62,739 nucleotides of DNA from Bacteroidota bacterium (GTDB lineage Bacteria > Bacteroidota > Ignavibacteria > Kapaibacteriales > UBA2268): assembly GCA_009777815.1 (NCBI GenBank), contig WRLB01000001.1:1-62739 (forward strand), read 5' to 3'. Positions 4,929-59,546 of the stretch are shown here, piece after piece (position 1 is the first letter of the stretch; every line of letters starts with the position of its first letter). A model generated the notes under the pieces. That model had not been told where the DNA came from. It did no database searches and saw only the letters and a program-made list of their open reading frames with translations. Position numbers and translations under genes: made by a program.

Positions 4929-4936
4929 TATTTTTG
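4929..4936 (+). promoter_or_regulatory. -7 box TATTTTTG upstream of 4965..7430
   Basis: Exact TAnnTTTG, 29 nt before the ATG. Part of the duplicated junction (copy of 123-130). Confidence 0.4.
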
Positions 4937-22528: not shown

Positions 22529-22771
22529 ATGGCAGTAGCAATTGTAGAAGTTCCGTTTCAATTGGATTTATTACAACAAATAGATAATTTCGTCGAAGAA
22601 AAAACTTGTTCAAGAGCAGATATTATTCTTGAAGCAACTAAAATGTATATTGCACATAAACAAAATTGGCAAGATATATTTTTACTTGGTGACCATCTGG
22701 CTTTAGAGAATAATCTCGCTAAAGACGATGTTATAAACGAAATAAAGGCATACCGGCAAGAAAGAAAATGA
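22529..22771 (+). CDS. Ribbon-helix-helix (CopG-like) antitoxin
   Basis: 80 aa. Beta-strand IVEVPF followed by two helices (LLQQIDNF.., SRADIILEATKMY). 4-nt ATGA overlap with the PIN gene. Confidence 0.65.
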   Translation: MAVAIVEVPFQLDLLQQIDNFVEEKTCSRADIILEATKMYIAHKQNWQDIFLLGDHLALENNLAKDDVINEIKAYRQERK

Positions 22772-23193
22772 AACTCGTATTAGATACAAATGTTTTTATA
22801 TCCTCATTTTTTTGGAGCGGCAATCCTCGGAAAATAATGACAAGAATTATAGAAAGAAAAGATGTCCTGTTTGCTTCTAACGAAATACTACAAGAAGTAT
22901 TTTTTGTTATGTCACGCCCTAAATTTAATGTGTCTCATCATCAAGTTGTTCATTTTGTTAATTCTATTGCAGAAATTTCCAGTCGTGTTAATTTATTGGG
23001 AACAGTAAAAGGAGTTTGTCGTGATAGTGATGACGATAAAATATTGGAATGTGCTATATTAGGCAAAGTAGATTTTATAATTACAGGCGATAAAGATTTA
23101 TTAATTTTGAAAAAATTTAAAGAAATACCCATATTATCTCCTTTGGAATATATTGAAAAGATTAAAAAAATTAATAGATTAAACATCCATTAA
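22768..23193 (+). CDS. PIN-domain toxin (VapC-like, PIN_3 type)
   Basis: 141 aa. MKLVLDTNVFISSF (Asp5), ..NEILQEV.., CRDSDDDKILECA, IITGDKDLL acidic residues. Confidence 0.8.
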   Translation: MKLVLDTNVFISSFFWSGNPRKIMTRIIERKDVLFASNEILQEVFFVMSRPKFNVSHHQVVHFVNSIAEISSRVNLLGTVKGVCRDSDDDKILECAILGKVDFIITGDKDLLILKKFKEIPILSPLEYIEKIKKINRLNIH

Positions 23194-26142: not shown

Positions 26143-26150
26143 TATTTTTG
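26143..26150 (+). promoter_or_regulatory. -7 box for rng
   Basis: TATTTTTG, 23 nt before the ATG at 26173. Confidence 0.4.
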
Positions 26151-30269: not shown

Positions 30270-30535
30270 ATGCACAATTTGTTTTGCTAAATTTTTATGA
30301 AATACTTTTATTATCGTTTTTTCAAAAAAACACATATTTTCATTAATTTAAAATACTTTTACATAATTTTTAGTAATAACTACTACAATGTAGCAAATTA
30401 TTTCATAATAAATAATAAAAATTAAAAATATATAAATTATTTTAAAAATATATTTTATATTTGTATGTTCTATAATTTAAAAATATAGAAAATTTTCTTA
30501 GACATTTTTTTATAATAATATATGGAGTTGCATTA

Positions 30536-31876
30536 ATGGCAGCAAAATTAAAAAAACAATTTGAAGAATACCAAACTGGCGCACAGCATTTAGTCGTGTT
30601 GCTTATAATGATTGTTGGATTCTTCTGTTTATATCAATTCATTGTAATTCCGAATGTTTTCGGAACATTTATTAATTCTTTATTTGCACCGTATGGTGAA
30701 ATGCTCGAAAAAACGGGCTTCGAAGAATTTAAAGACGGCGTAAAAGCTTCTGTTCCTAAAGATGCTGAACATCAAAATTACGCCAATATAGAAATCAATG
30801 GAGAATTGATTACCAAAGAATATATCTTTGATTGTTCTTGGAAAGAAAGAAAAACCGTAGAACACGGTTATGCAAAAGGGGCAAATGAATTTTATTTCAA
30901 ATGTCCTAAACTTGGCGAAAGTGCTATTATCATTGAGCCGTGGGTGTGCCTATGGCTATTAGCATTAGTATTGTCAGTAATATCTGCTTTACTGATAAGT
31001 ATGTTTATGCCTATCGGTATAGGTTATATGTCCGCCCTATTCTACGGACAAATCTATGCTACAGAAGTTAAACTACGCCTACAGACGGGCTTTACAGACA
31101 GAATTATAGAACTGTTAGTTATGCCCGATGAACAGTTTCGCAATGTAGACAACAACGAAGCACGTTCAGTATTCAGAGCAATATGGGATAGAACCGTCAC
31201 CGAAGACCTCGCATCTACCCATGTAATGCAAAACTTTGACGACATCTATTATGATGAAGTTGACAACGTTACGTTCAGAAATGAAATTATCTACAAAAGA
31301 ATTAAAGAGTTCTATTCTGACTTCCTATTAAAAGAAATAGAAGATACTAAAGCAGGTATCAGATGGTCTGAAAACCATTTTCTTGTATTTAACGGATTAA
31401 CGTTGTATATGTCTCACCACTTCTGCGAAAAATACCAAAACATCGTTACAGGTATGGCTTATGGTGGTGCTGCATTCCTTATCGTGTTTATCGGTATTAG
31501 AGGACTAAAATTTATTCCTGCCGACAAACCTTCTTTCATATTTTTAGCAATTATCCTTGAGTTCAGTATGCTTATGTTGATGGCTGTAACATTGCTATTC
31601 ACCGAAGGCGAAGAAAGAATGGACAAAATAATGAAGAAAATGGAAGACGCTAACAAGAGTTCGCTGGAAACTCAAAGAGTCCAAGCAGAAGATATGCACA
31701 TGCTCACAAACGCTCTCGTAGGACAAACTTCAGCACTTATCAAAGACAGAGTAGAAAAAGCAATTGAAGAGTTTATGACCTCTAACGATGAAGTCGAAAA
31801 GAAAATTGCAGGGGCAGTCGCAGATAAGATTCTTGTCAGTTTAAGAAGCAATAAAGAATTAGAATATAAAAAATAA
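30536..31876 (+). CDS. Hypothetical polytopic membrane protein with C-terminal coiled-coil
   Basis: 446 aa. TM segments near residues 20-45, 140-175 and 310-360. Own -7 box (30456-30463), TGGAG Shine-Dalgarno and a strong terminator. No family recognised. Confidence 0.6.
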   Translation: MAAKLKKQFEEYQTGAQHLVVLLIMIVGFFCLYQFIVIPNVFGTFINSLFAPYGEMLEKTGFEEFKDGVKASVPKDAEHQNYANIEINGELITKEYIFDCSWKERKTVEHGYAKGANEFYFKCPKLGESAIIIEPWVCLWLLALVLSVISALLISMFMPIGIGYMSALFYGQIYATEVKLRLQTGFTDRIIELLVMPDEQFRNVDNNEARSVFRAIWDRTVTEDLASTHVMQNFDDIYYDEVDNVTFRNEIIYKRIKEFYSDFLLKEIEDTKAGIRWSENHFLVFNGLTLYMSHHFCEKYQNIVTGMAYGGAAFLIVFIGIRGLKFIPADKPSFIFLAIILEFSMLMLMAVTLLFTEGEERMDKIMKKMEDANKSSLETQRVQAEDMHMLTNALVGQTSALIKDRVEKAIEEFMTSNDEVEKKIAGAVADKILVSLRSNKELEYKK

Positions 31877-31902
31877 TTATTGTTTCATTTTGTTTATTTT
31901 TA

Positions 31903-31929
31903 AAAGACATCTTCGGATGTCTTTTTTTT
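31903..31929 (+). terminator. Rho-independent terminator after 30536..31876
   Basis: AAAGACATC-TTCG-GATGTCTTT followed by a T-run. Confidence 0.85.
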
Positions 31930-32107
31930 GTCAGTGTTCATTTTAAGGAACATAATATTTTTATATTCTCCCTGTCATAGATTATCATTTTTTTGTTATT
32001 TTTGTATAATTTTTTAGATTAAATTAACATTAAATTATGTTAAAAGTAGATATCAATGACAGTGGAGAGTATAGCAGAAAAAAAAGAATAAAAGAAATAT
32101 AACACGC

Positions 32108-32203
32108 AAACAATTTTTTTATAATATATAACGATAACCCCTTATTTCTCGGAGTAGAAAAAGTATAGATGTTTTTATTTCTAAAAAAAGTGTATTTTTG
32201 TAA
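32108..32203 (+). repeat. Cassette-head direct repeat C1 (96 bp, includes a promoter box)
   Basis: AAACAATTTTTTTATAATATATAACGATAACCCCTTATTTCTCGGAGTAGAAAAAGTATAGATGTTTTTATTTCTAAAAAAAGTGTATTTTTGTAA. About 5 mismatches to C2. Confidence 0.95.
32193..32200 (+). promoter_or_regulatory. -7 box of R-M cassette 1
   Basis: TATTTTTG, 11 nt before the ATG at 32211. Lies within repeat C1. Confidence 0.45.
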
Positions 32204-32210
32204 ATAAACT

Positions 32211-32525
32211 ATGTATAAAGAACAAGAACATTTAACACTAAATAATAAACGAACACAAGGACAATATTTTACTAAATATAATCCATTTGAAAATGAAGGG
32301 TTTTTAGAATGGGCAGAAAAGTACAACCTTAAAGAACAAACTATACTTGAACCTTTTGCGGGTGCTAATAATTTAATAGATATGTTGAATGATAGATTAG
32401 CACGATTTAGAGAAGACACAAATGATATATTTTTAACTCCTTTCAAAGGATTAAGAAAAGATAATAAATATAGACGGCGCTTGGATTATGCTTTGGCAAG
32501 GAAGTTAATAAGTGAGGTGGCTTGA
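32211..32525 (+). pseudogene. N-terminal fragment of a gamma-class N6-adenine DNA methyltransferase (truncated after motif I)
   Basis: 104 aa. QGQYFTK (motif X-like GQYFTP) and ILEPFAGANNL (motif I), but no NPPY. The TGA overlaps the dcm ATG (TGATG). Confidence 0.55.
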
Positions 32526-33703
32526 TGTTTAAAGTAGTATCTTTGTTTTGTGGTGCAGGCGGATTAGATTTGGGTTTTAAAAAGCAAAAATTTAAAATTA
32601 TGTTTGCAAATGATTTTGATAAAGATTCCTGTGAAACATATAAAAACAATATAGATAAAAATGTTTTATGTCAGGATATAAAAGAAATAGAAAGTTTATC
32701 TATTCCTGATAATTGTGACGTTGTTTTAGGAGGGTTCCCGTGTCAGGGGTTTTCGGTTGCAAATAACAAAAGATATATAGATGACCCAAGAAATTATTTA
32801 TATAAAGAAATGTTAAGGGTAATTAAAGATAAAAAACCGAAGATATTTGTGGGAGAGAATGTAAAAGGTATGATGACTTTGGCAAAAGGGAAAGCGTTCA
32901 AACAAATACAAGAAGATTTTCAAAGTATTGGTTACGATGTAGAAGCAAAACTGCTTAATACCGCTGATTTTGGTGTCCCCCAAAACAGATTTAGAATTAT
33001 TATTATTGGCAATAATATTAATGTTAAAAATATATTTCCTGACGATATTAAGAAAAAGGTTAGAAAACTAAAAACAACAGAAAATGCAATAAAAGATTTA
33101 AAAGATATTCCAATATCTTATAATCCAATTTGTATAGCCAATAAAAAAATTTATAATCATATAGCATTTCAGAATGTTAGTGATAAATTTTTAGGTAGAA
33201 AATATAGTATAAACCAACACGATATATGTGACTATTTGAAAGAATGGCGAAATAAAAGAAAAATTTCAACAAAAAAAATAGATGAGATTTTTGGTTATAG
33301 GCACACAGCAGGTCATTGGTTCAGAAAAGATAATAATTCAGGTTCTATTCCTAAACCAAGTGATTGGTGGCGGTTAAAAAAAATATTAGATTTTGATGAT
33401 AAATATGATAAGCAAGTAACAACCCTTGAAGAGAAACAAATAACTTTTGACCAATCTTTAAGAATTGTAAATTGGGATACTCCAAGCGATACAATAACGG
33501 CTTCTATACCAGAAATTCATATTAACAGAGAAAGACGTTTGTCCGTTAGAGAATGTGCTAGATTACAAACTTTTCCTGATAAATTTGTATTTTATGGCAG
33601 TTTAAATAGTATGCACAGACAGGTTGGCAACGCTGTTCCCGTTAAGTTTGCTGTAATAATTGCAAAATGTGTTAAATTAATGTTAGAAGGAGAAAAATGT
33701 TAA
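32525..33703 (+). CDS. dcm: DNA (cytosine-5)-methyltransferase
   Basis: Motifs LFCGAGG (I), GGFPCQGFS (IV), ENV (VI), QNRFR (VIII), GNAVP (X). GAGGTGG Shine-Dalgarno upstream. ATG at 32525 (TTG at 32522 also possible). Confidence 0.93.
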   Translation: MFKVVSLFCGAGGLDLGFKKQKFKIMFANDFDKDSCETYKNNIDKNVLCQDIKEIESLSIPDNCDVVLGGFPCQGFSVANNKRYIDDPRNYLYKEMLRVIKDKKPKIFVGENVKGMMTLAKGKAFKQIQEDFQSIGYDVEAKLLNTADFGVPQNRFRIIIIGNNINVKNIFPDDIKKKVRKLKTTENAIKDLKDIPISYNPICIANKKIYNHIAFQNVSDKFLGRKYSINQHDICDYLKEWRNKRKISTKKIDEIFGYRHTAGHWFRKDNNSGSIPKPSDWWRLKKILDFDDKYDKQVTTLEEKQITFDQSLRIVNWDTPSDTITASIPEIHINRERRLSVRECARLQTFPDKFVFYGSLNSMHRQVGNAVPVKFAVIIAKCVKLMLEGEKC

Positions 33704-34449
33704 ATAATTTAGATTTAGAAAAAATAGAAAGTAAATATTTAGAAAAATTTTATCATTTTTTAAAATTTACTGAAGATGAAATGCTAAAAGGATTACAAAC
33801 AAAAGAAAAAATTAAAGATGATTGGTATAAATATTGGAATAGTGGGGCCGGTTCTAGTGATTTTGATATCGGTGCCGAAAGAATAGTATATGCTTTATTT
33901 AATGGAAAAGGTATAGGGCAACCTAATTCTTGTCCAATAGGAAGTGATTTGTTTTTTGAAGTAGATGATGCTTTTATACATATTGATTTAAAAACAGTTC
34001 AAACAAGAAATGTTGGTGATTATAACACTTCCATTTTTGTAGGTGCAAATCAAAACAGTTATAATGGCGATATGATTGTAAATAGAACTGAAATTAGAAA
34101 ATATGGACCACATTTGCCACATTATTATACTTGTGGTAAAATAAAAAAACCTTGTTTAACATATTTTGTAACTATTTTATATGAAGATATAAAATTAGAT
34201 ATTCTGAATATAAATTTATTATGTATGCCAAATGGTCAGTTAATAAATGAATATAGGACAGATGTTTTAAAAGCAGGTAAATTGGTTACGCAAACAAGAT
34301 TTAATTTTTCAAAAACATTAGATTTTAGATTATTAAAAAATAAAAAAAGAGTGAAAATTGTTTATATGAATGAAAATAAAATATTAAAAGATGATAAGTT
34401 GAAAAAAGGATTAAACTTATTATTAGATGTTTATAAAGAACAAAAATAG
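33697..34449 (+). CDS. Putative type II restriction endonuclease partnered with the C5-MTase
   Basis: 250 aa. Overlaps dcm by 7 nt and has a GGAG Shine-Dalgarno. PD-(D/E)XK-like GSDLFFEVDDAFIHIDLK. No other family recognised. Confidence 0.5.
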   Translation: MLNNLDLEKIESKYLEKFYHFLKFTEDEMLKGLQTKEKIKDDWYKYWNSGAGSSDFDIGAERIVYALFNGKGIGQPNSCPIGSDLFFEVDDAFIHIDLKTVQTRNVGDYNTSIFVGANQNSYNGDMIVNRTEIRKYGPHLPHYYTCGKIKKPCLTYFVTILYEDIKLDILNINLLCMPNGQLINEYRTDVLKAGKLVTQTRFNFSKTLDFRLLKNKKRVKIVYMNENKILKDDKLKKGLNLLLDVYKEQK

Positions 34450-34550
34450 TAACTAAAAAGATTAACAGATAACAAAACAAGTTTCGTCTTAACAATAAAC
34501 GAATTAATGGATTTTTTGAAAGAAATAAAGTAAAATACAAATAAAACAGC

Positions 34551-34646
34551 AAACAATTTTTTTATAATATATAATGATAACCCCTTATTTCTCGGAGCAG
34601 AAAAAGTATAGATGTTTTTATTTCTAAAAAAATCTTATTTTTGTAA
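34551..34646 (+). repeat. Cassette-head direct repeat C2 (96 bp, includes a promoter box)
   Basis: Same sequence as C1 with about 5 mismatches. Confidence 0.95.
34636..34643 (+). promoter_or_regulatory. -7 box of R-M cassette 2
   Basis: TATTTTTG, 14 nt before the ATG at 34657. Confidence 0.45.
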
Positions 34647-34656
34647 TATTGTTAAA

Positions 34657-35415
34657 ATGGAAATCATAAATAAAGTTTTTTGTGGTGATAGAATAGAAGT
34701 AATAAATAAGTTGCCTGAAGAGTCAGTGCATTTGATAATTACATCGCCGCCGTATAATGTTGGAATTGCTTATGATAATCATAATGATACAATGCCGTAT
34801 AACGAGTATTTGGAATTTTTAAATGAAACTTGGGAAGCGTGCTATAAGATATTAGTTAATGGTGGCAGAATAGCAATAAATATACCAAGTGTTACGGCTG
34901 ATGGTTGTTATCAACCGCTTTTTTCTGATGTTATACAGCAAATGAAAAAGATTGGCTATATTATGCGAGGCGATATTTTGTGGTATAAGCAATCTATTTC
35001 TAAAAGAACTGCTTGGGGAAGTTGGAAAAGTCCAAGTAATCCATATGTTGTGCAACCATATGAATTTGTGCTAACGTTTTCAAAAGGAACAAAGAAATTA
35101 GAAGGAGATAAAGAAATGATTGATATTACAAAAGAAGAGTTTATAGAATATTCAAATTCTTTTTGGTCAATAAAACCGCAAACACAACCCAAAGGACATC
35201 CTGTGCCTTTTCCAGAGGAGTTAGTTTATAGGTTAATAAAATTTTATACTTATAAAAATAATATAGTGTTGGACCCTTTTGGTGGAAGTGGAACAGTTGC
35301 TGTTGTAGCACAAAAAACAGGTAGAAATTTTATTTATATAGATAAGTCATTAGAATATTGTAAATTAGCAGAACAATTTATTTTAGAACAAAAGGAGAAT
35401 ATATTTTATGTTTAA
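34657..35415 (+). CDS. Beta-class N4/N6 DNA methyltransferase (SPPY type, likely N4-cytosine)
   Basis: Motif IV IITSPPYN precedes motif I VLDPFGGSGTVAVVAQKTGRNFIYID (the N6_N4_Mtase order). Start at MEIINKVFCGD, because the upstream ATG at 34612 lies within the repeat/promoter. Confidence 0.88.
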   Translation: MEIINKVFCGDRIEVINKLPEESVHLIITSPPYNVGIAYDNHNDTMPYNEYLEFLNETWEACYKILVNGGRIAINIPSVTADGCYQPLFSDVIQQMKKIGYIMRGDILWYKQSISKRTAWGSWKSPSNPYVVQPYEFVLTFSKGTKKLEGDKEMIDITKEEFIEYSNSFWSIKPQTQPKGHPVPFPEELVYRLIKFYTYKNNIVLDPFGGSGTVAVVAQKTGRNFIYIDKSLEYCKLAEQFILEQKENIFYV

Positions 35416-36202
35416 TCTTAATCATATAGATTATATAGAAACAAAACTTAAAAAACCCATTGCAAATAAAGGTATTATAGAAATAGGTGTTAATTTTAAT
35501 GATTATTTTTCTTTTAATGATGCAAATAAATATGCTTCGTTATATGCAGAAAATTTTGTTAGAAAAGCAACTACAGATAAATCAAGGCAAGAAAAATCTT
35601 CCAAAGATAGCATATTAGGAAAATTAGTTGAGGAAGTAATAATTTATTTATTAGGTTCTTTTTTTAAAGTTAATAAAAGAGATTTTACAATAACAAATAA
35701 TAAAACCGAAAATGAAATTGTAGAAGATATTATATATTCTCTTTGCATAGAAAGAAAAAATACAGGACATATTAAAAACTTTGATACAGATATAATTATT
35801 TACAACAATAAAAATATTAATACAACTAGAAAAGTTTTTATATTGTCTGCTAAAGGCACTACAAGAGAACGAATTGGTCAATTTTTGTCGCATTTATTTT
35901 TGATGGATCAAGATGTTTTAAATGCAAAATATGGTAAAAATAAATATGAAGTAATTTTTGAAAAAGAAAATATAAAACTGAAATATGCTTTTGTTACGCT
36001 TGATTGGGCGGCAGGCAAAGATTTTATTAAATATACTAAAACAGGTAAAGAAAGAAACTCTGTAAAAGAAACAGAAGTGCAATTAATTTTAGATGATAAA
36101 AAACTCGGCGGTGGAATTTATGTTTTAAACAACAATGAAAATTTTGATGGTATAGGAAACTTTACAACACTCGCAGGAACTATCTGCGATTATTTGAAAT
36201 AA
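35408..36202 (+). CDS. Putative type II restriction endonuclease partnered with the SPPY MTase
   Basis: 264 aa. 8-nt overlap with the MTase and a GGAG Shine-Dalgarno. DTDIIIY ... ILSAKGTTRERIGQ resembles the D...SxK..(R)ER catalytic variant of CCGG-family (Cfr10I/NgoMIV-like) enzymes, from memory. Confidence 0.45.
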   Translation: MFNLNHIDYIETKLKKPIANKGIIEIGVNFNDYFSFNDANKYASLYAENFVRKATTDKSRQEKSSKDSILGKLVEEVIIYLLGSFFKVNKRDFTITNNKTENEIVEDIIYSLCIERKNTGHIKNFDTDIIIYNNKNINTTRKVFILSAKGTTRERIGQFLSHLFLMDQDVLNAKYGKNKYEVIFEKENIKLKYAFVTLDWAAGKDFIKYTKTGKERNSVKETEVQLILDDKKLGGGIYVLNNNENFDGIGNFTTLAGTICDYLK

Positions 36203-36208
36203 AACAGT

Positions 36209-36262
36209 AAACAATTTTTTTATAATATATAATGATAACCCCTTATTTCTCGGAGCAGAAAA
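36209..36262 (+). repeat. Cassette-head direct repeat C3 (54-bp core only), directly upstream of rpsJ
   Basis: AAACAATTTTTTTATAATATATAATGATAACCCCTTATTTCTCGGAGCAGAAAA. Confidence 0.95.
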
Positions 36263-36305
36263 TAGAAAAGTGCAAAGGGAATAAGAATATCTAAGGGAAA
36301 GTATC

Positions 36306-36617
36306 GTGGCAACACAGAAAATTAGAATATGCCTCAGAGCATACGACCATATCTTAATAGATAAATCGTCAGAGCGCATAGTTGATACTCTTAAAAAGAG
36401 TGGCGCCGAAATATCAGGACCAGTTCCGCTACCAACACGGCGCAGTTTATATGTGGTAAATCGTTCTCCACACGTGGATAAGAAATCTCGCGAACAGTTT
36501 GAATCAAGAATTCATAAGAGATTGATAGACATTATTAACTCTACACCAAAAGCAGTAGAAGCCCTAATGCGTTTGGAACTACCTGCAGGCGTAGATGTAG
36601 AAATTAAACAATATTAG
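36306..36617 (+). CDS. rpsJ: 30S ribosomal protein S10
   Basis: GTG start. [39 protein letters not shown]. Confidence 0.95.
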
Positions 36618-36625
36618 GAGGACCA

Positions 36626-37258
36626 ATGAAAATCACAAAGAAAGCCATTTTAGGCAAGAAATTAGGTATGACCCGAGTATTCAGCGAAGACGGAAGAATG
36701 GTTCCTGTAACTGTCGTTGAATGTGGTCCATGTCCTGTCGTTCAAATTAGAACTGACGAAAAAGATGGTTACTCCGCCATCCAAATCGGCTACCAAGTAG
36801 CAAAAGAAAAACATACGCCTCGTCCATTACAAGGACATTTTAAAAAGGCAGGAGTTTCGTTCCAAAGGCATCTTAAAGAGTTTAGGAATTATGAAAAAGA
36901 TGTCAAAGTTGGAGATATTATTACTGTAGAAGAGTTTGCAGTTGGCGATTTAGTCCGTATCTCAGGAACAAGTAAGGGTAAAGGTTGGCAAGGTGTAGTA
37001 AAAAGACATCATTTTAGTGGTGTTGGTATGCAAACACATGGTCAATCAGATAGACAACGACATCCTGGTTCTATCGGTGCTTCATCCGACCCATCAAGAG
37101 TATTTAAGGGCATAAAGATGGCAGGTCAGATGGGCAACAAGCGTGCAACATTACGCAATTTAGAAGTCGTAGAAGTGCTTCCTGAAAAGAACATCCTTTT
37201 AATTAAAGGCGGAGTTCCAGGAGCAAATAATTCATTTTTAGAAATAGATATGGTATAG
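36626..37258 (+). CDS. rplC: 50S ribosomal protein L3
   Basis: 210 aa. [42 protein letters not shown] Shine-Dalgarno. Confidence 0.95.
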
Positions 37259-37267
37259 GAGGCAACA

Positions 37268-37900
37268 ATGTTAGTAAATCTATATAACAAAACAGGAAAT
37301 ACTACGGGACAAATAGAATTGCCCGATAACGTGTTCGCAATAGAACCGAATGAACACGTAATGCACCAAGCAATAGTAACTTACCGTGCTAACCAAAGGC
37401 AAGGAACTAAAAAAACAAAAATACGCTCCGAAGTGTCAGGCGGCGGTAAAAAACCTTGGGGACAAAAAGGTAGAGGTGGAGCAAGAGCAGGTTCTACTCG
37501 CTCACCATTATGGCCAGGCGGCGGAACTATACACGGACCTAAACCCGTTGATTATAGAATGAACCTGCCTAAAAAAGTTAAACGTCTCGCAAGAAAATCT
37601 GCATTCAGCGCCAGAGCAGCAGAACAAAATATTTTCGTATTAGACGAAATGAATATGAACGAAGTTAAAACAAAAACGTTCTCTGAAATGCTAAAAGCAT
37701 TAAATTTAGGTAATACTTCTGTACTTGTTCTCACACCCGAATACAATAAGACATTGTATTTGTCATCAAGGAATATTCCAAATATTACCTTAAATGCTGC
37801 CGATAAAGTATCTACTTACGATATTCTTACACATCGTAAATTACTTATACTAAAAGACGCAATAGAACCTATAGTAAAAACTTTCGAAGGAGGTATATAA
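37268..37900 (+). CDS. rplD: 50S ribosomal protein L4
   Basis: 210 aa. GGGKKPWGQKGRGGARAGSTRSPLWPGGG. AGGAGG Shine-Dalgarno. Confidence 0.95.
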   Translation: MLVNLYNKTGNTTGQIELPDNVFAIEPNEHVMHQAIVTYRANQRQGTKKTKIRSEVSGGGKKPWGQKGRGGARAGSTRSPLWPGGGTIHGPKPVDYRMNLPKKVKRLARKSAFSARAAEQNIFVLDEMNMNEVKTKTFSEMLKALNLGNTSVLVLTPEYNKTLYLSSRNIPNITLNAADKVSTYDILTHRKLLILKDAIEPIVKTFEGGI

Positions 37901-38199
37901 TGCAAATAATCCAAAAACCAATATTGTCCGAAAAGGCAATGAAATACACTGCTGACGGCAGATATGTATTCCAATGCGTTCCTTCTACCAATAAAATAGA
38001 AATAAAGAAGGAAATAGAAAAAATATTCGAAGTTAAAGTAAAAAGTGTTAGAACTTTGAATGTTAAGCCGAAGGCAACACGTAGATTTACACGCACTGCC
38101 GTTCTACGTGGACACACTGCACGCCGTAAGAAAGCATATATCACACTTATGCCAGGATATAACATAGAACTTACAGGCGTAGATACACGTAGCGAATAG
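37900..38199 (+). CDS. rplW: 50S ribosomal protein L23
   Basis: 99 aa. ILSEKAM.., F.V....NK.EIKKEIEKIFEVKV..V. ATG overlaps the rplD stop (TAATG). Confidence 0.93.
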   Translation: MQIIQKPILSEKAMKYTADGRYVFQCVPSTNKIEIKKEIEKIFEVKVKSVRTLNVKPKATRRFTRTAVLRGHTARRKKAYITLMPGYNIELTGVDTRSE

Positions 38200-38225
38200 C
38201 AAATGCCGTGTATAATTAAATAAAT

Positions 38226-38258
38226 ATAGGCGTTGCAAAGCAACGCCTATTTGTGTTT
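38226..38258 (+). terminator. Rho-independent terminator directly after rplW
   Basis: ATAGGCGTTGC-AAA-GCAACGCCTAT followed by TTGTGTTT. Confidence 0.8.
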
Positions 38259-38335
38259 ATTGAACGTTCAAATGTTATAAAAATATGATATGAATATATT
38301 TTTTCTAATCTTTTTCGCATTTTTGTAAAAAAAGG

Positions 38336-38352
38336 AATTAGTAACGTTTTTA
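38336..38352 (+). other. Conserved motif AATTAGTAACGTTTTTA (copy 3 of 3)
   Basis: Same 16-nt core as 18053 and 25855. Here it is not followed by a tandem array. Confidence 0.6.
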
Positions 38353-38516
38353 GAATATTAAAGTTATTTTTTGTAGTAATATGCTGTTATACCAACCTTG
38401 TTTGGGTATCTACTAATTTTTATTATAAGTGTTTATTAAAGAATTAATGGTCTGTGTCAAGCACACTATTAAAAAATACAGAAGTTTTATTTTTAGTGGT
38501 ATATCAATTCAATTAT

Positions 38517-39146
38517 TTAAATAGCAAATAAAGTAGTTGCAGTGGGCAAGATTTTATTTAAAAACGAGGTTCTATGGTATTTGCATATTCCGTATTTTTT
38601 TATTAATTCAATATGTTCTTTTGTTCCATAGCCCTTGTGTTTAGCGAAATTATATTGCGGAAATTCTTTATCCACAATTTCAATCATAAAATTATCTCTA
38701 TAAACTTTTGCTAATATAGATGCCGCAGAAATCGACTTGCAAATACTATCGCCCTTAATAATAGTTCTAAACGGAATAGCATCAGAGCAATATCTATTGC
38801 CATCAATTAGCAAATAATCGGGTTGTATTTTTAGATTTGAAACAGCATTTTCCATTGCTTTCATTGTTGCATTTAGAATATTGATTTCATCAATTATATT
38901 ATTATTTATTTCCGCAATAGAATATGCGATGGCATTATTTATAATAATATCGGATAGTTGGTGTCGTTTTTTTTCTTTTATTAGTTTGCTATCATTTACT
39001 TCGTAGAACAAATTATTATTAATAGTTAGTATTATAGCGGCGGCGACTACAGGTCCAGCGAGTGGTCCTCTTCCTGCTTCATCTATTCCTGCGATATATT
39101 TATAATTTTGTTTTATAAGTTCTTCTTCTATACGAAAATCTGACAT
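38517..39146 (-). CDS. rnhB: Ribonuclease HII
   Basis: GIDEAGRGPLAGPVVAAA, DSK, SIAAASILAK. Start at MSDFRIEE (39146). The 55 extra N-terminal codons of the 264-aa ORF are a read-through of palindromic repeats. Confidence 0.9.
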   Translation of the reverse strand: MSDFRIEEELIKQNYKYIAGIDEAGRGPLAGPVVAAAIILTINNNLFYEVNDSKLIKEKKRHQLSDIIINNAIAYSIAEINNNIIDEINILNATMKAMENAVSNLKIQPDYLLIDGNRYCSDAIPFRTIIKGDSICKSISAASILAKVYRDNFMIEIVDKEFPQYNFAKHKGYGTKEHIELIKKYGICKYHRTSFLNKILPTATTLFAI

Positions 39147-39195
39147 ATAATTGTAAAAATAAAAATATTTAACATCTAAAAATATAGTTTGATAT

Positions 39196-39329
39196 ACTCT
39201 GTTATGCGGACTTGTTTCAGCATCTACTCGCATAAAATAAGTTGATGATGAAACAAGTTCAGCATAACTGCTTTTTAATAAATGGATGTCGAAACAGGTT
39301 CTATATGACATTTTTAGATGTCACCTAAA
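39196..39329. repeat. Cluster of F1 hairpins plus F3 tail
   Basis: TGCGGACTTGTTTCAGCA, GATGAAACAAGTTCAGCA, GTCGAAACAGGTTC, ATGACATTTTTAGATGTCACCTAA. Confidence 0.75.
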
Positions 39330-50639: not shown

Positions 50640-51124
50640 GATACACTGCAAGATAATCGGGTGCCGGAAGTAATAGAGATGGACGAGATTTACACTCGTG
50701 TAAAAAAAGGGGCTTGCGAGTTCAGGTATGGGTTGCTTATTCTCGGCGGCGAAGTAAAGTTGTTGCATATACGATAGGTGCCAGCAGCAATTGCGCCATA
50801 GAACTTTACAATCTGACTAAGCGTGCAGTAGGCAATATTAGTTGTATTTACACTGATGGCAATTCAAGTTATCGGGAGCGATTTACCGATATTGGCATAT
50901 CTGATTTGCATAAAGTAGCACCGGGCAAGTCACAGACGCATCTGATAGAGAGTGTCAATAGCAGTATCCGAGACAATTTAGCTAGATTTAACAGACGTAG
51001 CAAGCGTTATAGTAAGACATTAGAAATGTTAGATAATACGCTATTATTATTTTTTCATTACAAAAAATACAAACGTCACATAAAGCGAACACTGCCAACG
51101 TTACTGAAATTGTTAAATTTATAA
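50640..51124 (+). mobile_element. IS1-family transposase remnant (N-terminally truncated, frame-disrupted)
   Basis: Frame 0 reads ..VPEVIEMDEIYTRVKKG. After the A7 run at 50702-50708 the homology continues in the -1 frame: VWVAYSRRRSKVVAYTIG..IYTDGNSSY..KSQTHLIESVNSSIRDNLARFNRRSKRYSKTLEML (InsB-like DDE region). Locally higher GC. Confidence 0.7.
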
Positions 51125-59415: not shown

Positions 59416-59546
59416 GATACCTCTTTTAAAATATTTAAGAGAACTACTAAAAAGTTATGTCGTGCTTGACATTTTTAGTAGTATCCACTTATTTTCATCT
59501 TTTTTCGTATTTTTGCAATCAGTAATAAAGTAATTGCAATAAAGTA

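Follow-up and report, generated by a model that had tools for sequence, protein, structure and literature searches.

An 'insertion with long target duplication' of restriction-modification (R-M) genes has been described previously (Nobusato et al. 2000, Gene 259:99; Furuta, Abe & Kobayashi 2010, NAR 38:2428, PMC2853133). In the latter study, such insertions are recognized by an insert of <20 kb containing both a restriction (R) and a modification (M) gene, repeats of >30 bp, a single copy of the repeat at a related empty site, and no mobility genes. The repeats often cover translation start or stop sites, and the authors characterize the long target duplications as 'long and variable'; their paper nowhere uses the word 'tandem' and was still seeking contexts that hint at the pathway (PMC2853133). 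Here we describe a locus of this kind in a 62,739-nt stretch of DNA (contig WRLB01000001.1; 'the window' below is this whole stretch), the closest relatives of which are metagenome-assembled genomes (MAGs) of the Ignavibacteria/Kapaibacteria type. Two predicted type II R-M cassettes stand one behind the other directly upstream of rpsJ and the other S10 ribosomal genes, and a copy of the same direct repeat precedes each cassette and rpsJ itself. Every published feature of this category of insertion is found here. Both inserts contain R and M genes (M1, PF00145; M2, PF01555; R1, BglI/SfiI fold and MwoI_N; R2, PfoI/PspGI fold), are 2.3 and 1.6 kb long, and are free of mobility genes in a Pfam scan of open reading frames (ORFs) of >=120 aa. 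The repeats span 96-98 bp (95% identity) around cassette 1 and 66 bp (100% identity) around cassette 2. The empty site has a single copy in L007 and L012 and a diverged one in L015 and L016, in sister species rather than in the same species (L002-L029 are labels of the compared loci and contigs). The locus is probably a strain-variable R-M array on duplicated copies of the rpsJ promoter and leader, formed by iterated insertion with long target duplication.

The likeness to published cases extends to a small insert of R and M genes only, direct repeats of >30 bp, a single-copy empty site and the lack of a transposase or integrase (PMC2853133). Here, however, the repeats cover the region just upstream of the rpsJ start and leave the neighbouring gene intact; the insertion is iterated, with two tandem cassettes and at least four alternatives in near-identical strains; the repeat has grown by a predicted 42-bp promoter, which the empty site lacks; and the junctions are nearly fixed, not 'variable', in a target that is the promoter and leader of the S10 operon. 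The tandem, strain-variable and promoter-carrying arrangement at a ribosomal-operon leader is new, and the mode of insertion is already known. Integrons and integrase-less attC arrays (CALINs) also consist of short cassettes in one orientation, with a repeat of ~100 bp between them at a fixed chromosomal site, and can include defence genes, whereas the repeats of this locus are neither palindromic nor prone to folding, are copies of a host promoter and leader, and separate cassettes that carry predicted promoters, with no IntI found. In the Escherichia coli immigration control region (Sibley & Raleigh 2004; PMC12707154), restriction systems are likewise replaced in cassette fashion at one position with no resident mobilising gene, but that region has two conserved anchors and no repeat between systems, whereas here the rpsJ side alone is conserved across species and a copy of the target delimits every cassette. 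Tandem integrative elements at transfer RNA (tRNA) att sites resemble the array in that direct repeats rebuild the target at each junction; those elements have their own or a borrowed tyrosine integrase and extend over many kb, in contrast to the 1.6-2.4-kb inserts seen here, which consist of R-M genes only and target the leader of a protein gene.

The repeat has a 54-bp core, followed in the first two copies by a 42-bp extension (X42); repeats, cassette genes and anchors all lie on the forward strand. Copy 1 has its core at 32108-32161 and X42 at 32162-32203, copy 2 (34551-34646) has its core at 34551-34604 and X42 at 34605-34646, and copy 3 (36196-36262), which precedes rpsJ, has its core at 36209-36262 with AAATAAAACAG just before it. 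A repeat search of the window returned a single family of three direct copies (32106-32203, 34549-34646 and 36207-36304), with 95% identity across 98 nt between copies 1 and 2 and a match confined to the first ~56 nt in copy 3. The window contains the 22-mer GATAACCCCTTATTTCTCGGAG exactly three times, against none expected in 100 shuffles. Local alignment extends over ~125 bp between copies 1 and 2, of which the leftmost ~28 nt are weakly similar, over 66 bp without a mismatch between copies 2 and 3, including AAATAAAACAG, and over 68 bp between copies 1 and 3; the core of copy 1 differs at two positions from those of copies 2 and 3. An earlier note, made from the letters of the window, had placed three direct copies at 32108, 34551 and 36209, the first two longer than the third, with a further stretch in common upstream of the latter two. 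These positions and relationships agree with the searches, and the extents needed adjustment: the left end of the repeated unit lies a few nt before the stated position, at ACA(C)G(C/T)AAACAA, and copy 3 reaches 4 nt further right in strain L002.

The 54-bp core is the native upstream region of rpsJ, because it is found in single copy before rpsJ in four cassette-free relatives. L007 (found by a scan for the core) and L012 (found through its L4 protein) are 89% identical to the window at the nucleotide level over rpsJ-rplW and have a single core directly before rpsJ, no X42 and no R-M gene, with tssC (L007) or a WG-repeat gene (L012) as the upstream neighbour. The more distant L015 and L016 (~80%) have a recognisable, diverged single core before rpsJ and no cassette there. 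Copy 3 of the window aligns with the single copies of all four. The earlier note had named a generic promoter or repetitive extragenic palindromic element as a reading that would refute it, and the core is neither: all three window copies lie at this locus, and one exact-match scan of a metagenome collection returned two contigs only. The core is also absent from viral contigs; a degenerate X42 pattern gave four viral-contig matches, which are assumed to be chance matches in AT-rich DNA.

A predicted leader hairpin helps to define what was duplicated. The 5' leader of rpsJ (36234-36305) contains CCCCUUA, within the core, which would pair with UAAGGG in the Shine-Dalgarno region, and the duplication breakpoint falls in the apical loop of this hairpin. 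As the duplication stops in the loop, the core takes in the promoter position together with the 5' half of the leader, and the core of copy 1 duplicates the native promoter position and the 5' arm of the leader. Comparison of relatives suggests that the predicted hairpin (36234-36312) is conserved, with 18 predicted pairs, of which two show compensatory changes, among five sequences only; a small GCA/UGC hairpin within the leader becomes GUA/UAC in L015 and L016, and the single-sequence fold has a z-score of -1.15. The leader may be autoregulatory. Neither the repeat nor the leader matched an Rfam family, at the gathering threshold across the whole window or in a permissive search of 31850-36700.

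Cassette 1 comprises M1 (32522-33703), a full-length C5-cytosine DNA methyltransferase (PF00145, 3e-79, profile positions 1-321 of 324 covered; TIGR00675, 5e-75), and R1 (33697-34449), a predicted type IIP restriction endonuclease of 250 aa with a BglI/SfiI/MwoI fold, followed by a non-coding 3' tail (34450-34548) that travels together with this pair and is kept in L023 up to window position 34546. Cassette 2 comprises M2 (34657-35415), a beta-class N4/N6 DNA methyltransferase with an SPPY motif (PF01555, 4e-46), and R2 (35408-36202), a predicted type IIP restriction endonuclease of 264 aa with a fold of the CCGG/CCNGG family (PfoI/PspGI/AgeI/BsaWI-like); a terminator scan placed a terminator-like hairpin at the R2 end (36171-36189). 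The earlier note had listed a methyltransferase fragment, a C5 methyltransferase, a 250-aa ORF, an SPPY methyltransferase, a 264-aa ORF and a GTG-start rpsJ in this order, and the gene content is as it read. The start of R1 overlaps the end of M1 by 7 nt and that of R2 the end of M2 by 8 nt, which suggests translational coupling, and both M-R pairs are intact and full length compared with homologs; from the overlaps and the lengths, both cassettes are predicted to be complete type II R-M systems. The inserts have a GC content of 0.27, against 0.36-0.39 in the flanks.

The folds of the two endonucleases are assigned from predicted structures, which alone resolved them, since sequence searches of the PDB with R1 and R2 (single sequences and profiles) gave no match. 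R1 had no match in a Pfam profile search, and its PF27366 (MwoI_N) assignment comes from precomputed annotation; its family has ~1,000 clusters, some of which carry the name 'restriction endonuclease' or 'PDDEXK nuclease' in their source. The AlphaFold model of R1 (predicted local distance difference test score (pLDDT), 86.5) matched BglI (1e-8, template modelling (TM) score 0.66) and SfiI (7e-8, TM 0.63) in Foldseek. R2 has a weak, sub-threshold match to PF18643 (RE_BsaWI, 6.6e-5), a family that is also precomputed for several R2 homologs, and its model (pLDDT 89.7) matched PfoI (5e-7), PspGI (4e-5) and AgeI. In a plasmid search, the R1 family was found on two small plasmids (35-53% identity) and R2 had no match.

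Between copy 1 and M1 lies a 104-aa remnant gene (32211-32525), an in-frame internal deletion of an Eco57I-family (gamma-class) DNA methyltransferase of ~320 aa. Its residues 10-59 align with residues 1-50 of the ~320-aa relatives and residues 41-103 with residues 254-317, so that ~50 N-terminal amino acids are joined to ~60 C-terminal ones and the catalytic middle is gone; the full-length relatives match PF07669. The M1-R1 homolog in L029 (4818-6744, in a MAG labelled Rickettsiales bacterium) is 80% identical at the nucleotide level over window positions 32528-34455; it is made up of M and R alone, without the remnant. Because this homologous unit lacks it, the remnant was left by an earlier occupant of the slot and lies outside cassette 1. 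The earlier note had counted a methyltransferase fragment as part of the cassette; its derivation from a methyltransferase holds, and its membership of cassette 1 does not. The presence of so similar a pair in L029, an unrelated lineage, points to recent horizontal transfer of the M1-R1 gene pair; there the pair has no flanking repeats.

Each cassette appears to have a promoter of its own, of the type used by this organism. About 20 of the 45 window genes have the motif TAnnTTTG 27-43 nt upstream, with 28 sense hits against ~6.5 expected, usually in the form (G/T)TATTTTTG(C/T)A (for example 4929-4936, 26143-26150 and 59508-59515); the organism therefore uses Bacteroidetes-type promoters. A window scan for sigma-70 promoters gave no enrichment (34 found, 32 expected). 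X42 holds a perfect TAnnTTTG -7 box in both copies (32193-32200 and 34636-34643), 18-21 nt ahead of the first ATG in each cassette and 18 nt in the case of copy 1, from which a promoter is predicted for each. At the native site, the canonical Bacteroidetes-type -7 box of L016 (TAATTTTG) ends exactly where ATAACCCC starts; no canonical box was found within 300 nt upstream of rpsJ in the window, nor in L007 and L012. X42 belongs to the locus and not to the travelling gene pairs, because it is absent from the empty sites and also from homologs of the gene pairs elsewhere: it is missing before the M2-R2 homologs in L021 and L022 and before the M1-R1 homolog in L029. The L021 pair (M2 homolog of 267 aa; R 84% identical) shares the contig of L015, where it abuts other genes at a distance of 13 kb from rpsJ. 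Two further ideas about the module were rejected. If X42 had diverged from the native leader, more likeness would be expected than the ~7-12 nt seen just past the core, and the stretch before copy 1 (31877-32094), considered as one more module in decay, was no more similar to the unit than shuffled sequence.

The content of the array varies between near-identical strains. L002 and L026, which come from one sample, are 98% identical to the window. L002 has cassette 2, then the core, then rpsJ, and L026 has a different N6_N4 methyltransferase gene, then core and X42, then M2 with a protein identical to that of the window. In L006, 16 nt resembling the left flank of the window are followed by core and X42 and then by genes for a nuclease of the BsaWI family (4e-13) and a methyltransferase. 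The contigs of L006 and L026 are both short. Altogether, at least four different R-M units stand behind the same module in near-identical strains (the two window cassettes and those of L006 and L026), and the locus qualifies as a defence hotspot in that L026 has a different methyltransferase-bearing cassette in the slot of cassette 1 and L006 a third R-M pair. The module ends in TATTTTTGT(A/G)A in every case, its boundary with the cassette is the same within a few nt across the four cassettes, and the right ends of cassettes join the next core where AAATAAA meets ACA.

A second site of this type is predicted in the same clade. In L015 (11704-14132; JGI Ga0466715_382018), a type IIG R-M fusion of 774 aa (HSDR_N_2, N6_Mtase and Eco57I) stands between rplW and rplB. 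The direct repeats on its two sides are 48 bp long and 96% identical, and the right-hand one is ~90 nt away from rplB, on its upstream side; the arrangement appears to be another R-M insertion with long target duplication before a ribosomal gene. L023 (1205-1339) has a cassette-1-type M-R pair (R 82% identical) with the same non-coding tail of ~75 nt and then different DNA, AATATATAAAAACATTCAAATTGCAAAAC, which shares a 17-mer with the rplB-upstream repeat of L015; this cassette may sit at the rplB site. Decay is seen as well. An R2 homolog in L022 (826-1454; 90% identical) is 5'-truncated, with the first ~60 codons missing, and is followed by a gene that by eye resembles an S-adenosylmethionine-dependent methyltransferase and the Methyltransf_23 gene just upstream of rpsJ in L015; it looks like a decaying cassette. 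Together, the methyltransferase remnant behind X42 and this truncated homolog point to visible turnover of cassettes.

For the order of events and the recombination pathway, we infer the following. An R-M pair would have entered directly upstream of rpsJ with duplication of ~60-66 bp of native upstream DNA, which would keep an intact promoter and leader before the S10 genes and place a second copy before the insert. The first insert, or its junction, would have brought the 42-bp host-type promoter with its TAnnTTTG box. Later R-M pairs would have entered, or replaced content, right behind core and X42, and a later insertion would have duplicated both. The resulting near-identical repeats of 66-98 bp could then serve as substrates for homologous recombination, and unequal exchange between them could stack, swap and delete cassettes. 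Cassette interiors may also be replaced by illegitimate or microhomology joins, of which the recurrence of AAATAAA at right junctions and the remnant would be signs. Post-segregational killing is known for type II R-M systems and would oppose the loss of a cassette. The adjoining conserved ribosomal genes would offer long homology arms for import from relatives.

Several observations weigh against iterated insertion with long target duplication. The boundary at TATTTTTGTAA is fixed within a few nt in four cassettes and the right junctions all read AAATAAA then ACA, and a site-specific process would account for ends as fixed as these just as well. Sister species (89% identity) are the only ones in which the empty site is seen. 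Copies 2 and 3 are identical and copy 1 differs, which does not give a simple order in which the inner cassette came first; because of this pattern, the order of insertion is not readable from repeat identity, and gene conversion or import is implied. The full arrays of L006 and L026 may extend beyond these short contigs, and the window is a 63-kb view of the genome, so that a trans-acting recombinase may be encoded elsewhere.

The fixed ends are the main point for a cassette system resembling integrons, in which core and X42 would be the site of a recombinase encoded elsewhere and circles with one module would re-insert at the rpsJ core and perhaps at an rplB-like site. Module ends and junctions are nearly identical across four unrelated cassettes, the cassettes are bounded almost exactly by ORFs (cassette 2 opens ~10 nt ahead of the M2 start codon and closes with the R2 stop), the pair in L023 has the cassette 1 tail beside rplB-upstream-like sequence, and CALINs, attC arrays without an integrase, are known among integrons. 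We nevertheless regard such a system as improbable. A Pfam scan of the window ORFs (>=120 aa) gave no integrase, resolvase or invertase, and no tyrosine or serine recombinase turned up either there or in the annotation precomputed for a 25-kb sister contig; the same holds for an IntI-type tyrosine recombinase with attI and Pc. The only mobility-related ORF found in the window is an IS1-family DDE transposase fragment 14 kb away (50714-51124, 136 aa, PF03400, 7e-10). The 117-nt units folded as single-stranded DNA no better than shuffled sequence on either strand (z-scores of -0.17 to +0.20). By eye only, the module ends contain no R''/R' motifs, of which the core-site consensus is RYYYAAC and GTTRRRY. 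An attC-like folding was rejected, and an attC-type site lacks support in view of the folding result, the lack of an Rfam match and the 95-100% sequence identity of the copies, which is unlike attC sites. The earlier note had stated that the window holds no recombinase and that the repeat is not an attC-like inverted repeat, and the Pfam scan (for ORFs of >=120 aa) and the folding agree with it. It had also called the locus an integron-like accretion hotspot: accretion of strain-variable R-M units at a fixed point before rpsJ is borne out, with at least four units and empty sister sites, and the integron-like label is not supported by the comparison, because the repeats are a target duplication with near-identical copies and no hairpin, no recombinase was found, and the cassettes have predicted promoters of their own. 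The native origin of the core and the occurrence of homologous gene pairs elsewhere without the module also speak against it. A broader form of the idea is similarly doubtful, namely that core and X42 are the working part of an undescribed cassette-exchange system in Ignavibacteria-like bacteria, a portable recombination and expression site of ~100 bp taken from the promoter and leader of a ribosomal operon, by which R-M genes are stacked, swapped and moved between rpsJ and rplB leaders, either by a recombinase acting in trans or by a dedicated route driven by homology; if true, this system would be a functional analogue of the integron built from a housekeeping promoter.

An ordinary defence island, in which alleles between anchors are exchanged through flanking core genes and the repeats are incidental promoter duplications, would explain why content differs between 98%-identical strains that keep their flanks and why no mobility genes were found, and cassette-like R-M variation between anchors without mobilising activity is on record (PMC12707154). 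We consider it unlikely, since each cassette boundary in each strain seen coincides exactly with a repeat and the left anchor is not beside rpsJ in other species. Moreover, cassette 2 is paired with different upstream cassettes in the window and in L026, a combination that calls for exchange within the array, most simply at the repeats. There is a very slight chance that the stacking is an assembly artefact, in which two single-cassette alleles of different strains were joined through the common repeat. The window is a MAG contig, and in an older JGI assembly of this strain, contig ends fall near the array, with L009, L028 and L011 ending or starting at window positions 32024, 32079, 33798 and 35797. 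However, the ENA contig that gives the same order has k=141 in its name, and a chimera is unlikely because k-mers of this length should span the 98-bp repeat. The NCBI contig (62,739 bp) and the ENA contig (25,220 bp) agree on the order, and in a second, independent sample the module connects another cassette with cassette 2 (L026), and the core connects cassette 2 with rpsJ (L002).

The array is bounded on the left by a conserved membrane protein of 446 aa (30536-31876) with no Pfam match, followed by a terminator-like hairpin at 31902-31925, and on the right by rpsJ, rplC, rplD and rplW (36306-38199), where rpsJ starts with GTG at 36306. A scan of GTDB genomes returned just three distant homologs of the membrane protein (63-66% identity, in Ignavibacteria/Kapaibacterium MAGs); rpsJ was not found beside these three, which makes them uninformative on the empty site. 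The upstream neighbour of rpsJ is different in every relative. In the window, the S10 operon ends after rplW and a convergent RNase HII gene follows (38199-39311); the genes after rplW differ among L012, L015 and L016, and rplB is downstream in L015 alone, past the R-M insert. Two adjacent AT-rich direct repeats of 51 nt (71% identical; 30416-30521) lie upstream of the membrane-protein gene. Elsewhere in the window, a PIN-domain protein (22768-23193; PF13470, 6e-19) is probably the toxin of a toxin-antitoxin system.

The locus and its relatives offer a natural series that could constrain the insertion mechanism: a site that is still empty, four or more alternative cassettes, two cassettes stacked, a remnant in decay and, in the same clade, a second site upstream of rplB. 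The array shows how selfish defence genes can settle harmlessly beside essential, highly conserved genes through duplication of the promoter and leader, gaining expression signals and long homology arms for spread between relatives.

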